Assembly (NCBI GenBank): GCA_951406725.2 | Contig: OX597815.1 | Coordinates: forward strand, 42,532,001-42,596,000 | DNA from: Octopus vulgaris | Lineage: Eukaryota | Length of the DNA: 64,000 bases | Direction: 5' to 3' | In this document: one piece after another, positions 17,487 through 41,629 of the stretch | How positions within the stretch are numbered: position 1 is the stretch's first letter | How the letters are laid out: each line of letters begins with the position of its first letter | Translations under genes and position numbers: made by a program | The notes under the pieces: model-generated | Databases searched by the model: none | What the model was told of the DNA's origin: nothing | Seen by the model: the letters and a program-made list of their open reading frames with translations, nothing else

Positions 17487-18612
17487 GTATCGAAGGTGGT
17501 AGAGGCCTTACACAGTTAAAAAACTATTGCAAAATAACCATCATATGACTACAGAAATACCTACTTCAGAAGCAAGGAAAACTAATAAAAATAGCCACAA
17601 AACATGAACAAAACAAAAAACTGTTTTCAGTTTTTAAAGAAGCTGGCAAATAAAAAAAGTCACAGTACCTAACAACTAAGAAGACAAAGAAGAAACAACG
17701 AAAGCTGTAAAACATCTGAGACCCAAACTAAAACTGGAACAGCAACGGATCATGATAAAACGATGGCAAAAAAGCCCCTTCACGACAAATACTGGGTTAA
17801 ACTAAATAGAAAAGGAATATACAAAGCAAAATCCCAACAATGGCTGAGAAGCTCAGGACTCAAAGCAGATTGAAGTATTTTTAATTGCAGCACAAGACTA
17901 AAGCCGTCCCACCAGAAATTACCAAAAACTTGTAATGAAAAGAAACATAACAAGTAACTGCAGAACATGTGAAGAAGGACAAGAAACAATAAATCATATT
18001 GTCTCTGGCTACCCAGTCCTGGCTAAGAAGGAATATATTCACAGACATGACAGAGTTGGGACCTATATACACTGGAAGATATGCCAACACTATGGAATAA
18101 CAAGAGAAAAAAGATGGTATAGGCACACACCAGAAAAGGACACAGAAAACGAGAAAGCAATCATACTCTGGGATATGCCTATACACACTGATGGAGAAAT
18201 TAAGGCCAATAGGCCGAATATAGTTGTCAGAGATCACCAAGAAAAAATGCTTTCTTATCGATGTATCGATACCAACAAATGACAATGTTTCCGTAAAAGA
18301 AACGGAGCAACTTTCAAAATACAAAGATCTGGAAACAGGTAACTCGAATGTGGAGTCTGAAAACAATTCCTATCATAATAGGCGTATTAGGTATGATAAC
18401 GATATTCAGACAAATACATAACAAAAGCACCAGGACTAACAAGTATATATAACATACAGAAAATAGCACTACTAGGCACCGCACACGTCCTACGTAAAAC
18501 ACTTTCAATACAGTAACAATAAGAGCATCACAGCAAACCACACCACATACCCAAGGCACACAGAGCTACGTTCGGCAGTGCAGTGGAATCATGTAATAAA
18601 AATAGACTACTG
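17487..18612 (+). pseudogene. 5'-truncated R4/Dong-like non-LTR retrotransposon (CCHC finger plus restriction-like endonuclease) in (TAA)n
   Basis: CRTC..ETINHIVSG, YIHRHDRV, LWD, RPNIVV, LIDVSIP, LSKYKDLE, with frameshifts and stops; (TAA)n at both ends. Confidence 0.85.
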
Positions 18613-18763
18613 AATAATAATAATAATAATAATGATAATGATGATGATGATGATGATGGTGATGTGATGATGTTGATTTCTTTATTAACTATAAAGGCAC
18701 ACACATTATAAGACATTAAGGACGTCACAGGATAAAGCACCGAGTATATGTGTGTATGTATGC

Positions 18764-18795
<32 letters not shown>

Positions 18796-18933
18796 ATGTG
18801 CGTTGGCGTGAGAGTCTTTTTGTGTAAATAAGTTTAAAATAAAAATGAATCATACAATTCTATATTTAAGAAACGGAGTAACTTTGTACATTATTATAAC
18901 TGACGGATATTTGTCCTCATCTTGTTTGTTGTT

Positions 18934-18977
18934 AACACAACGTTTCAGCTGATACCCTCCAGCCTTCATCAGGTGTT
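18934..18977 (-). ncRNA. Minimal type-I hammerhead ribozyme motif (left arm)
   Basis: Minus strand: AACAC | CTGATGA A | GGCTG gagggtat CAGCT | GAAA CGTT | GTGTT. Confidence 0.8.
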
Positions 18978-19062
18978 TTGGGGAAATTTCGAACCTGAGT
19001 TCTCATTCCTAAGTTATTTTTCGATGTTGTTGTTGTTGTTATTATTATTATTATTATTATTC

Positions 19063-19136
19063 TGGTCACTGCCTGGACAAGAACTCGGAATCTTGGGGTT
19101 AGTAGCTCGTGCTCTTAACCACTACGCCATATACCC
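19063..19136 (-). promoter_or_regulatory. tRNA-like Pol III internal promoter (left arm)
   Basis: Minus strand: TGGCGTAGTGG A-box; degenerate B-box GAGTTCTTGTCC. Confidence 0.55.
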
Positions 19137-19239
19137 GTGGGCAATTATGGAGTGAATTTTAGGGCTTATAAATCTAATTAAGTAAGGATTGGAGAATATT
19201 AGATTTATAAGCCCTAAAGTTCACTCCATAATTACCCAC

Positions 19240-19312
19240 GGATATATGGCGCAGTGGTTAAGAGCTCGGGCTACTAATCCCAAGATTCCGAGTTCGAGTC
19301 CAGGCAGTGACC
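19240..19312 (+). promoter_or_regulatory. tRNA-like Pol III internal promoter (right arm); not a functional tRNA
   Basis: A-box TGGCGCAGTGG (19247), anticodon-like arm GGG-CTACTAA-TCC, B-box GTTCGAGTCC (19292); acceptor stem does not pair well. Confidence 0.7.
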
Positions 19313-19370
19313 TGAATAATAATAATAATAATAATAATAGAACGGGAACCCAGGTTCGAAATTTCACCAA

Positions 19371-19416
19371 GACACCTGATGAAGTCTGGAGGGTATATCA
19401 GCCGAAACGTTGTGTT
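19371..19416 (+). ncRNA. Minimal type-I hammerhead ribozyme motif (right arm)
   Basis: GACAC | CTGATGA A | GTCTG gagggtatat CAGCC | GAAA CGTT | GTGTT; one mismatch in stem II. Confidence 0.75.
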
Positions 19417-19459
19417 AACAACAAACAAGGTGAGGACAAATATCCGCCAATTGTACGGA

Positions 19460-36187: not shown

Positions 36188-38982
36188 TTTACACTGGCCA
36201 TACGTGATTCCCCAAATGTGGTAGCTATCACCGAGACTTGGCTGACTCCAGCAGTAAAGGACTCGGAAATACACCTACAGGGTTACGCCCTCTTCAGATG
36301 TGACAGAGAAAAATGCGAGGTGGAGGTGTTGCTGTGTATGTTAAATCTGATCTTAAACCGTCCAGCGGTATTCTACCCACTAATGCTCAACCTACAACAA
36401 AATTCGATGACGTCTATTGCAAGCTGAGCCTATCCAGGTTTTGCCTGCCCGTGTTAGCTGTCTACAGGCCGCCTCTTGCCAATCCCCAGGACGATGCTCA
36501 TTTACTCGAAGCGATAAGATTCGTTTCAGCTTCTCATGACTGTTTGATATTAGGAGACTTCAACGCTCCCACGATCGACTGGCCCGCATCAATTTGTACA
36601 TCATCTTCCCGGTTCGGCCAGGCCCTTCTTGACGTGGCTGAATATTGTTTTCTATCGCAACATGTTGAATATCAGACAAGGCATCGGTCTGGGCAGCAGC
36701 CATCTATGCTGGATCTGGTATTTTCCCGCTATCCAAGATCAGTGTCAGGCTTATCTGTGTGCGCCCCTCTTGCCAAGAGTGATCATGCGGTCCTGAAGTT
36801 CGTCATGCACACAACTTTTTCTACGCCCACGACTACTTCGCTGCCACGTAGAGTCTTCTCTGCAATCAATCTTGAAATTCTAACCGAGGCTTCCGCGCTT
36901 CTGGACTAGCGATCCCTGATGACGATGTCCTCATTTGACGAACTATGGTCGTCCCTCAAAGCATATGTAATCTGGTTCACTGACCAAGCAGTTCCCGTTG
37001 GGCTTCCCAAGAAGAAGAAACACAAGCCCTGGGTGACGAAGAAGGTTAAACGAGAACTTCGACTCAGAGATATTGCTCGGGCTGAATTCAAAAATCTAGA
37101 TTCGACTGCAGCTTTTGAGGTGTACAAAACTCAACGAGACCGAGCCGTGAAAATTGAAAAGGAAGAACGCTTCAGATATGAATACAGAATCGCGGCGGCA
37201 AACACCAGTCGCAATCCAAAAACCTTCTTTGCCCATGTTCAACGGAATTCCCGCTTGAACAACCAAATTGCAACGTTGGTAGACTCAACAGGCGTATCGA
37301 TTGAGGACCCTTATCAACAGAGTCAGTTATTTGCCGAGGCTTTTTCAACTATTTTCAAACAAGATGATGGTCGTGAACCCCCACCATTTGATAGATCGGT
37401 ACCTCCAATGCTTAGATTGGTTATCACGCGGGACGAAGTCGAACGCGTTATTCAAGGCCTCGATGCCAACAAGGGTCACGGCCCTGACGGCATACACCCA
37501 CAGGTTATCAAAGTGTTGGCTCCGGTCATCTGCGAGCCTTTAACACTTCTATTCAATATGTCATTGGCGACGGGTGTTATACCTGTGGACTGGAGAACAG
37601 CGATAATCTGCCCAATTTTCAAGAAAGGGAGCCGCGAAGACCCGCTTAACTACCGACCGGTTTCCCTTACTTCAATAATCAGCAAGATGTTCGAAACCTT
37701 AGGAAAAGTATGTTGCTCCACCTCCAAAACACAGCCTCTATCTCTGATTCCCAACACGGCTTCGTGCCGAAGAGATCATGCTTGACCAACATACTGGTGA
37801 TGAAAGAATTGGTGACGCGTATTCTCGATGATGGTGATGCTGTTGACATCGTTTTATTGGACTTTGCCAAAGCTTTTGACTCGGTAAACCAACGCCTATT
37901 ACTTGTCAAGCTTCAAGCATATAGTTTCCATCCGGATATTGTACGATGGGTTGGTGCCTTCCTCTCAGATCGCTCCTTCAAAGTCCAAGTTAATGGTTCG
38001 CTGTCCGACGTCTCCAGTGCGAGCAGTGGCGTGCCTCAAGGTTCAGTGCTTGGGCCCTTATTGTCCTTAGTCTTCATAAATGACTTGCCCGACGACCTCA
38101 CGCAACACACCCTTCTATTTGCCGATGATGTCAAACTGGTCGCTCCTCGCGGTGATATAGAGGATCTTCGTCGATGCCTCGACCAAGTTTGGAGATGGTC
38201 TAACGAATGGGACCTGTGTCTGAACGTGTAAGAGTGCTGTCATCTGCCTGTTGGCTCTTCTCCTGCAACTCAACTTGATTTCGAGCCGGGTCGTCTGCTG
38301 CTGGAGAGGACCGACCAAGTAAAGGACCTGGGTATCTTGGTGGATTCTTCCTTTTCGCCTTCGGTCCAGTGCGTCCATGCTGCCAACAAAGCACGCGGAG
38401 TTCTGTTTTTGATTCGACGGTCATTCGGAATGCTCACAGCAGCCATATTCCTACCGCTCTATGCCACGCTGGTGAGACACATATTGGAGTACGGGATTCA
38501 AGCCTCTTCTCCTTATCTCCTCAAAGACATACATCATCTCGAAAGAGTTCAGAAGCTGGCTACCCCCATGGTTCTTGGTCTCAAGCATTTGTCTTATGAA
38601 GAAAGGCTGAAGACGCTCAATCTTTATTCTCTAGAAAAACGACGACGCCGTGATCTCATTCTTGCTCACAACATCATAAGCGGAAAGTGTAACCTCTCGA
38701 AAGAGCTGTTCTTCACTCCTGCTCCAGAACGTCGGCTGGAAAATCTCTATCTGCGACGATTTCATCTCAATCGAAGGAGAGGGGCTTTCTCCGTCCGGGT
38801 TGCGGGTCCGTGGAATAAGCTGCCAGACGAGATAGGGAAGATGCCGACGACCGCTCGGTTCAAAGTCTCCTTTGACCAGAAATGGCCTGAACTCTTTGCA
38901 TGAACACCACCCTGTACATAACTCCATGTCCCCCTACATGGCCTTGCTTTTTGGGCCAAAAAAACTAACTTAACTTAACTTA
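36188..38982 (+). mobile_element. 5'-truncated CR1-type LINE; ORF2 (APE endonuclease plus reverse transcriptase) broken by a few frameshifts and stops
   Basis: AITETWL, GGGVAVYVK, YRPP, ILGDFNAP, LDLVF, SDH; YRPVSLTS, QHGF, DFAKAFDSV, GVPQGSVLGPLL, FADD; (AACTT)n tail; ACATGTA at 36181-36187 and 38983-38989 as TSD. Confidence 0.95.
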
Positions 38983-40410: not shown

Positions 40411-41629
40411 TAAGTAAATGTACTACAAAAACGATTTACAGTTAGACATTTGAATGCCCACTAATGATGATATGACTGAAATCAGCGCTCAATTGTAAAT
40501 TAATGTAATATACTTTTACCATCATGATTCTAAACGTACTTTTCTTCACCACACTCATCTGAATTTTCCATTGTTTGCAACCACGTGACTGTATGCAGGT
40601 TGCTGATTTACTCACTGCACTTCTAGTCCTTTCTTCCTTTATCTACACAAATTAGCCTCCTCTCTCCCAATCCTCCTCTCTCACCACTCAGTACAAGTGG
40701 GGTTGTATGATAATGGTTCTATAATTACTCGTTTGTAACCACGCTGAAGGACCATCGCATAATCAAACAGACATTAATCTATGAAGAAGCAAAATTGTAA
40801 TGGAAAGTCTCTAACAAAAGTGATAATTTAATTCTCTATTATGTAAATATTAGGAGTTAGTCATTTTAAATACCGAGATGTATGTACAAAAGTATAATTG
40901 AAAATTTTACACGAAGACTACATCCATTTACTTACAGTGCCCTATGTGACCGAGAACCGAAGTTTAAGTAGCATGATCTTAAACTAATACAGAACAGGGC
41001 CAAATATCGGGCAAGTTTGGGATAGGAAGCAATCCAGATTTTGAATTTTCCGGTTTTTTTGGAGACAGCCTATACATATATACTTAAAATATAAATTGAC
41101 GGCAACCTCACTGCGTTCGAAATTTACTTTCTTGTCTGTAAAATACCAAACACATTCGACGCTTCCAAAGTTTGTTTATGAAATGTTGTCGCATTCGAAA
41201 AGCTATTATTTAGCATTTAAATCGAGGGTAATTGCTTTCAGGGGCCGTTCCGTTTAGCTTGATGGTTGAGCACTAAGTTGGTATCTGAGGAGTACAGGCT
41301 CGATACCTGTAGCCACCTGCTGACAACTTTTTTTCATCTTATTAGGGTAGATAACCAATCTTTCTCTGTTGTTCTTACAGCTTTATTGCGTTCGAGATTT
41401 ATTTTCTTGCCTGTTAAATAAAATAAACTATAAACAGTAAAGAACTAAATTACATTTAATAGATTCACATTAATTCACTTAAAAAACCCCTAAACAAACG
41501 AAAAAGGACTGTTTGAAATTTATTAATCCACTTAAAAATTAAAAAAATATATCATGCACTATCGAGTATACAGCATAATGTTTATAGGATGAAAATTAAA
41601 CGAAGGAAAGTAAAGAACATGAATTTATT

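Follow-up and report, generated by a model that had tools for sequence, protein, structure and literature searches.

In Octopus vulgaris, a 64,000-nt stretch of contig OX597815.1 (GCA_951406725.2, 42,532,001 to 42,596,000; the whole stretch analysed is referred to as the window, and positions are counted from its first nucleotide) contains a fold-back element in which tRNA-like Pol III promoter boxes stand next to hammerhead ribozymes. The locus raises the question of whether such a unit is an independent mobile element or a piece of a larger one, and of what transcribes it. A sequence-only reading had favoured the former, proposing a non-autonomous, tRNA-headed SINE or retrozyme whose ~170-nt, hammerhead-ended RNA is copied in trans by a Penelope reverse transcriptase (RT).

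An inverted pair of truncated 3' ends

Alignment of the two arms confirmed that they are inverted copies, complementary over segments of 140, 70 and 60 nt at 93%, 83% and 92%, respectively. The pair had been placed at 18900..19452, where it indeed lies, but its true extent is 18853 to about 19457. The arms abut at about 19178 without a central spacer, in a head-to-head junction (about 19177-19178) with 2-3 nt of microhomology, and both extend into the end of an open reading frame (ORF). The right arm starts with the last 10 codons and stop (LSKDWRILDL-stop) of a Penelope RT/GIY-YIG ORF (19178..19210, plus strand), and the left arm, a 5'-truncated Penelope-like 3' end covering 18853..19178 on the minus strand, retains the last ORF codons and stop at 19166..19178 (minus strand).

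In the right arm (all plus strand), a TATA-like TATAAG (19206..19211) overlaps the stop codon, 28 nt before a predicted start of transcription at 19234 (left-arm equivalent, 19142), which lies in the 5' arm of a hairpin that is native to the family and decayed in this copy (19226..19249). The tRNA-derived head follows at 19240..19313, with an A-box at 19247-19257 (TGGCGCAGTGG) and a B-box at 19292-19301 (GTTCGAGTCC). It is succeeded by an (AAT)n spacer (19315..19339), after which about 18 nt of family sequence are deleted, by a minimal type-I hammerhead (19371..19416) with a predicted GUU cut after 19411, and by a 3' end (19417..19457) that stops at the first end cluster without the tail extension. 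The left arm (all minus strand) has its head at 19063..19136, with an A-box at 19119-19129 (TGGCGTAGTGG) and a B-box at 19075-19084 (GTTCTTGTCC) broken by two substitutions, an (AAT)n(AAC)n spacer at 19025..19061, a minimal type-I hammerhead at 18934..18977 with a predicted cut after 18939, and a 3' end (18853..18899) that includes a ~35-nt tail extension of the Penelope-like element (PLE) type. This tail, which resembles those described in the available parts of PMC11167929 and PMC8557442, probably reflects a second reverse-transcription start site. The spacers and both cut positions agreed with the sequence-only reading, as did the promoter boxes of the right arm, but not the left B-box. The core features of the hammerhead were likewise found in both arms, but stem II of the right-arm ribozyme contains one G-to-T mismatch and pair 10.1-11.1 of the left-arm ribozyme is a G-U wobble. 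Rfam called neither a tRNA nor a hammerhead at the locus and returned only sub-threshold hairpin matches; ARAGORN called no tRNA there.

Each arm is the 3' end of an autonomous element, made up of the last ORF codons, the 3' UTR and a pseudo-LTR (pLTR), and at this locus two 5'-truncated 3' ends of the Penelope/Poseidon type form a dead, inverted pair. The fold-back is the usual inverted insertion of a PLE; inverted 5'-truncated partners and a one-sided tail of 30-40 nt are standard PLE features in the available text of PMC8557442 and PMC4209133. Because both arms run past the predicted start site, the window copy came from a longer RNA. A MITE or other DNA transposon was rejected, the arms being retroelement 3' ends with a variable centre. 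The locus is an ordinary dead copy, and its interest sits in the family.

Several other features of the window were noted. Just 5' of the right-arm hammerhead, within the first ORF codons contained in the family tail, lies a second B-box-like motif (GGTTCGAAAT; 19353-19365, plus strand), which may be a remnant of an older promoter of tRNA origin or a chance match. The decayed 3' end of a retroelement ORF at 17500-18640 (plus strand) terminates in KIALLGTAHVLRKTLSIQ-stop followed by (AAT)n, and we take this element to resemble a Dong/R4-type LINE. The CTG-(AAT)n common to this LINE end and the tRNA head is a weak hint that LINE machinery may have delivered the head. Four successive long frames (193-291 codons) at 36303-38900 (plus strand) belong to another LINE-like element, and 41252-41313 (plus strand) gave a weak tRNA-model match (26.1 bits, below the Rfam cut-off), which is probably a SINE head.

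The autonomous parent family

Exact 29-mers were counted genome-wide, and the pre-hammerhead/tail, head and ORF-end 29-mers were found 4866, 1155 and 655 times, respectively, with 0 matches for the reversed controls, bearing out the earlier proposal of a genome-wide family. An arm query returned 3,459 candidates genome-wide, 40 of which were scored. Scaling of the 29-mer counts by exact-match rates of 51/199 (tail), 8/108 (head) and 18/59 (ORF end) gave estimates of about 19,000 tail, 15,600 head and 2,100 ORF-end arms, the head estimate being loose in that it rests on 8 exact matches in 108; the head 29-mer contains two CpG. The hammerhead tail lay downstream of the head in 71 of the 89 position-ordered loci, and the expected co-occurrence of head and hammerhead therefore extends beyond this locus. 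An inverted arm was present upstream in 49 of the 89 head loci.

The end of an RT/endonuclease ORF was found upstream of the head at loci L002, L006, L015 and L026, and the head came directly after the ORF end at 29 of the 30 ORF-end loci taken in position order; it also followed the ORF end in 24 of the 30 best long loci. A 569-codon open frame at L068 matched RVT_1 with an E value of 2.7e-6, below the curated cut-off, and a GIY-YIG motif was read by eye in the ORF product P0001, for which Pfam PF01541 gave no match. The family ORF is 34-38% identical to PLE-like ORFs of metagenome contigs, and the best 30 matches of a distant PLE protein to the genome were all to the tRNA-headed family. At L070, a direct 5' pLTR repeat continues into the ORF N-terminus. 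Among the 14 copies that have an ATG just before the hammerhead, this ATG was in frame with the ORF body in 7, 3 of which were stop-free, and the rest were frameshifted. The in-frame ATG places the hammerhead inside the coding start (the first ~35 ORF codons) and makes an intron unnecessary, so a short intron by which the ORF would be joined to an ATG located at hammerhead stem II was dropped as a candidate. The layout of the family is thus a pLTR, a single RT + GIY-YIG-type ORF that begins just 5' of the hammerhead, and a 3' UTR with the tRNA head, (AAT)n, hammerhead and tail. The comparison of an arm with the pLTR of an autonomous PLE, which had been recommended at the outset, recovered the same head, spacer and hammerhead, but not a separate element.

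On sequence grounds, the family is a PLE, probably of the EN+ Penelope/Poseidon type, in agreement with the proposed mobilization by a Penelope RT. The Poseidon-type label follows from the absence of a Cys linker, which we take to be the criterion. The family may already be catalogued. At six loci (L237, L240, L252, L253, L255 and L260), the first 260-420 nt of the ORF are joined directly to the pLTR tail or head, making these copies internally deleted derivatives. PLE-like RT ORFs that are stop-free in the matched region, two of them in tandem and accompanied by a hammerhead, were also found on contigs filed in bacterial metagenome-assembled genomes (L368-L370), which are likely animal contamination.

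The head is ~60% identical to the tRNA-Asn(GTT) of the genome, with alignment scores of 50-62 versus about 20 +/- 4.5 for shuffled sequences and 32-38 for tRNA-Phe, Asn and Phe being the two isotypes compared. Both boxes are intact in the family at the spacing of a tRNA gene, confirming the tRNA-derived, Pol III-type nature of the head, and pairing has been lost in the acceptor and T stems. Processing of the 5' end by an RNase P-type cut at tRNA position +1 was considered and found unlikely, as the acceptor stem is unpaired in the alignment as read by eye. A similar head was not found in 8 metagenome loci (four inspected by eye), 3 genome-contig loci, viral sequences (0 matches) or Neptune-like 3' UTRs. 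Strict A and B boxes occurred upstream in 0 of 30 loci of other hammerhead families versus 8 of 30 for the tRNA-headed PLE. A cluster of about 40 tRNA-Asn(GTT)-like genes was seen in the genome (G000:C20:52.876-52.928 Mb), and tRNA-Asn alternates with tRNA-Phe on C18.

The hammerhead, both in the family majority sequence and in the window arms, has the core CUGAUGA/GAAA/NUH, an extra nucleotide after A9, the 10.1-11.1 pair (G-C in the majority) and a palindromic stem III, and folding recovers stems I and II. These two stems have no alternative pairs at the majority level; the copies descend from one master, so covariation is uninformative. When the 3' ends of copies were projected onto the cut, 0 of 140 lay within 5 nt of it, 53 lay at +44 to +59 and 61 at +75 to +90, forming two clusters 50-60 and 84-88 nt past the cut. 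Since the ends lie past the cut and none at it, the template was uncleaved, which contradicts a self-cleaved RNA of ~170 nt as the template. The family has the optional tail of 30-40 nt with two 3' end sites, and in the window this tail is confined to the left arm. Cleavage is predicted only for a dimeric form of the hammerhead; because the cut would fall inside the ORF start, the ribozyme would be a regulator or relic and not the maker of 3' ends. For the anole Poseidon element, the available parts of PMC11167929 describe two internal RT start sites, insertion in vitro for which hammerhead cleavage is unnecessary, and a requirement for ORF sequence in addition to the tail. Hammerhead cores in which stem III is ACGCGT and stem II is AT-rich gave 68 further matches in the genome (L294-L323; reversed control, 1), which represent several families, likely other PLEs.

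Copy 5' ends and the promoter

The 5' ends of copies were examined in 89 of the first 100 listed head matches, namely the first 90 less one duplicate arm. Fourteen copies extended at least 30 nt toward the ORF, 12 stopped before the A-box and 63 stopped within ~21 nt upstream of it. Hence, of the 77 copies extending as far as the A-box, 63 end just upstream of it, with a background hazard of 0.0024 per nt in the ORF. The ends pile up 9-26 nt upstream of the head 29-mer, with peaks at 22-23, 16 and 14 nt, and the farthest peak (22-23 nt; 16 of 89) falls at a G preceded by T, 13-14 nt before the A-box. In another sample, which was anchored on the tail and made up of 30 arms (four pairs being the two arms of one insertion), 23 had the head and 1 of these 23 reached the ORF.

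A Neptune-like PLE of the same genome, in which CCAAT, CRE and TATA motifs were read by eye and no A or B box was found, was used as a control. Its 5' ends fell exactly at TATA+30 in 4 of 30 copies and within +30 to +56 in 7 of 24, the 24 being the 30 minus four alignment breaks at an AT repeat and two earlier stops. The ends at TATA+30 indicate that 5'-end cliffs mark start sites, and this result is useful alone, as the start site can be read from the 5' ends of short PLE copies in the way that internal RT initiation predicts. The cliff at the tRNA head is stronger than that of the control (63/77 versus 7/24; Fisher p 3e-6). The Neptune-like PLE (L354-L361; e.g., L357:1226-4590) is young, with intact 781-codon frames containing RVT_1 and GIY-YIG; it has 610 exact 3'-end matches, and a pattern search detected no canonical hammerhead core in it.

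A run of four T is known in general to terminate Pol III transcription. On the sense strand of the family (2,329 nt), no TTTT site was common to more than 10% of copies under three references (139-142 aligned pieces, at least 20 copies per column), and the head and tail are also without an ancestral TTTT. Two other PLE ORFs of the same genome with similar base composition contain 9 (781 aa, 21% T) and 8 TTTT runs, so that 0 ancestral runs in the 2.3-kb ORF compare with 9 in the same-size control ORF; seven distant PLE-like ORFs contain 8, 2, 6, 9, 4, 3 and 7. The observed/expected ratio for TTTT was 0.30 in 67 overlapping family frames versus 1.28 in 37 other long frames. For this one ancestral sequence, the probability of 0 TTTT was 0.0075 under a base-composition null, 0.065 under a dinucleotide null and 0.11 under a trinucleotide null.

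The best reading, to which we assign a probability of about 0.6, is that a Pol III promoter inside the pLTR yielded thousands of SINE-like copies. In any pLTR, Pol III would initiate at the G that lies 13 nt 5' of the A-box. The Penelope RT would prime at an endonuclease nick, begin internally at either tail site of the uncleaved RNA and run off its 5' end, and the cDNA end would then often fold back on a 5-bp palindrome or join a second cDNA, giving inverted arms. Short RNAs from the pLTR promoter would lie behind most family copies. Since the promoter is kept in every short copy, short SINE-like copies would come to outnumber ORF-bearing ends, as they do by about 7 to 1. Our further proposal is tentative, and we hold it with less than even confidence: the autonomous coding PLE may be transcribed end to end by Pol III from the captured tRNA promoter, with TTTT purged from 2.6 kb of sense strand, no intron, cap-independent translation and its own SINE-like offspring. 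Counting against this proposal, a coding RNA made by Pol III would be uncapped and must still be translated; Kojima 2024 argued that autonomous elements need Pol II, a statement made for LTR elements in the available text of PMC10886601.

The chief alternative, which we consider unlikely, is that the cliff is a Pol II start from the TATA-like box at -28, with a head that is a SINE or pseudogene captured passively by the 3' UTR and with TTTT missing by chance. The position of TATAAG fits Pol II equally well. Against this alternative, intact A and B boxes with tRNA-gene spacing lie directly behind the start, the cliff is far stronger than in the control with its TATA motif, 0 TTTT runs stand against 8-9 in the other ORFs of the genome, and the ratio of 0.30 in the sense frames of the family stands against 1.28 in the other long frames.

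It is less probable still that no promoter is involved and that the native hairpin halts RT, or triggers snap-back of the cDNA, on long RNAs, producing both the cliff and the fold-backs. The hairpin covers the cliff and, at -9.6 kcal/mol in intact copies, is among the strongest of the element; fold-backs are often centred on it, and snap-back extension was found in 15 of the 24 short copies that keep the palindrome, but the native bulge upstream was kept in 0 of these 24. Within the ORF, hairpins with -9 to -13 kcal/mol are without a comparable cliff and show loose clusters only; the ORF 5' ends gather loosely near a hairpin at ORF ~1960-2010. The farthest peak lies inside the 5' arm of the hairpin, where the stem would already be open. 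At loci with long ORF pieces, a hand count of 18 informative arms (near-symmetric snap-back pairs excluded) found 7 stopping at the cliff (3 of 7 5' pLTRs and 4 of 11 asymmetric partner arms) and 11 reading past the hairpin, which argues against an absolute block and indicates that many templates began upstream. A hairpin stop would also leave the absence of TTTT unexplained.

The majority sequences of short and long copies are identical outside a variable 9-nt repeat, with no diagnostic columns, and the copies are equally diverged (4.7-6.3% at non-CpG positions, ~5-6%). They therefore derive from one master in one burst, with no separate SINE lineage. A separate short-copy subfamily, first hinted at by the exact tail 29-mer in 0 of 30 ORF-end loci, was rejected after a wider count of 22/97 in long copies versus 29/102 in the head sample. 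A free donor SINE was not seen by eye among the listed head loci without a tail, and the head, which an independent SINE would not share with its partner, belongs to the autonomous element. Nor do the copies form retrozyme tandems: they are dispersed, single or inverted, with no arrays in 30 tail loci, and a few loci (L190, L197) have at most two consecutive same-strand hammerhead tails. An independent SINE or retrozyme copied in trans is thus very improbable, even though 75 of the 89 head-bearing copies are without ORF sequence and non-autonomous PLE derivatives are known (available parts of PMC8557442 and bioRxiv 10.64898/2026.07.22.740005), as the unit is the pLTR of the autonomous element itself, 0 of 140 copy ends lie at the cut, short and long copies lack diagnostic differences and the window arms contain ORF codons. 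What remains of the SINE-like aspect is weaker: the majority of copies with a head start just upstream of the A-box (63/77), and the window copy itself does not.

Relation to known systems

The fold-back and the ribozyme are known features, and what is new is a putative tRNA-derived promoter in a PLE pLTR. As far as the available text of PMC4209133 describes them, the minimal hammerheads of metazoan PLEs have the same extra nucleotide between 9 and 10.1, G10.1-C11.1 pair, palindromic 15.2-16.2 and short stem I, and occur as opposite-strand pairs 100-700 bp apart; the octopus ribozyme is an ordinary PLE-type member that does not differ from them. The anole Penelope/Poseidon element PAc (PMC11167929, in the parts available) is alike in its single RT + C-terminal endonuclease ORF, a pLTR hammerhead that overlaps the start of the ORF, two sites of 3' ends with a tail of 30-40 nt between them and an uncleaved RNA template. 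It differs in that those parts describe no tRNA-derived sequence or Pol III promoter, and in that the ATG of the octopus family lies upstream of the hammerhead core. The Penelope element of D. virilis has an internal promoter of the LINE type, according to the available text of PMC2377424.

Among short ribozyme-bearing repeats, non-LTR retrozymes (PMC7229834 and bioRxiv 10.64898/2026.07.22.740005, available parts) are likewise non-coding, pLTR-derived copies with a type-I hammerhead, but they form head-to-tail tandems of 170-400 nt that give circular RNA, whereas the octopus copies are single or head-to-head and have a tRNA head. The schistosome Sm-alpha/Sj-alpha repeats, as presented in the available portion of the review PMC6765202, resemble the family in being short, SINE-like units in which a type-I hammerhead lies downstream of a Pol III promoter. 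They are cleavage-processed tandems for which that portion names no parent PLE, whereas the octopus copies are dispersed, are not cleavage-ended and have a parent ORF attached. Mention of a hammerhead was not found in the cephalopod repeat literature covered (available text of PMC13282606 with its supplement, and of PMC8967140), and among the papers listed by the literature searches none was seen to describe a PLE whose promoter is tRNA-derived or of the Pol III type.

The closest analogy for the promoter is provided by the TRIMp3 elements Cassandra, Helenus and Ajax (PMC10886601, available text), which also have a Pol III promoter derived from a small RNA in the terminal repeat, proposed to have arrived by SINE insertion. 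The likeness is one of analogy only, as TRIMp3 have true LTRs, a PBS and a PPT, whereas the octopus unit is a PLE pLTR with an attached ORF; the main text of PMC10886601, as available, has 0 occurrences of "Penelope". In that account, Pol III promoters mark non-autonomous retroelements, autonomous LTR elements being held to need Pol II. If a PLE does use a Pol III promoter in its pLTR, the TRIMp3 idea would be extended to a third retrotransposon class, and it would be seen how a SINE-like family can arise within the very element that drives it. Should the coding RNA also be a Pol III product, it would be a natural 2.6-kb, terminator-free, uncapped mRNA, and end-to-end reading by Pol III would join an autonomous retrotransposon and a SINE in one unit. 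Whereas TRIMp3 are LTR elements of the non-autonomous kind, the host in octopus is a PLE, and it is the autonomous coding element that carries the putative promoter.
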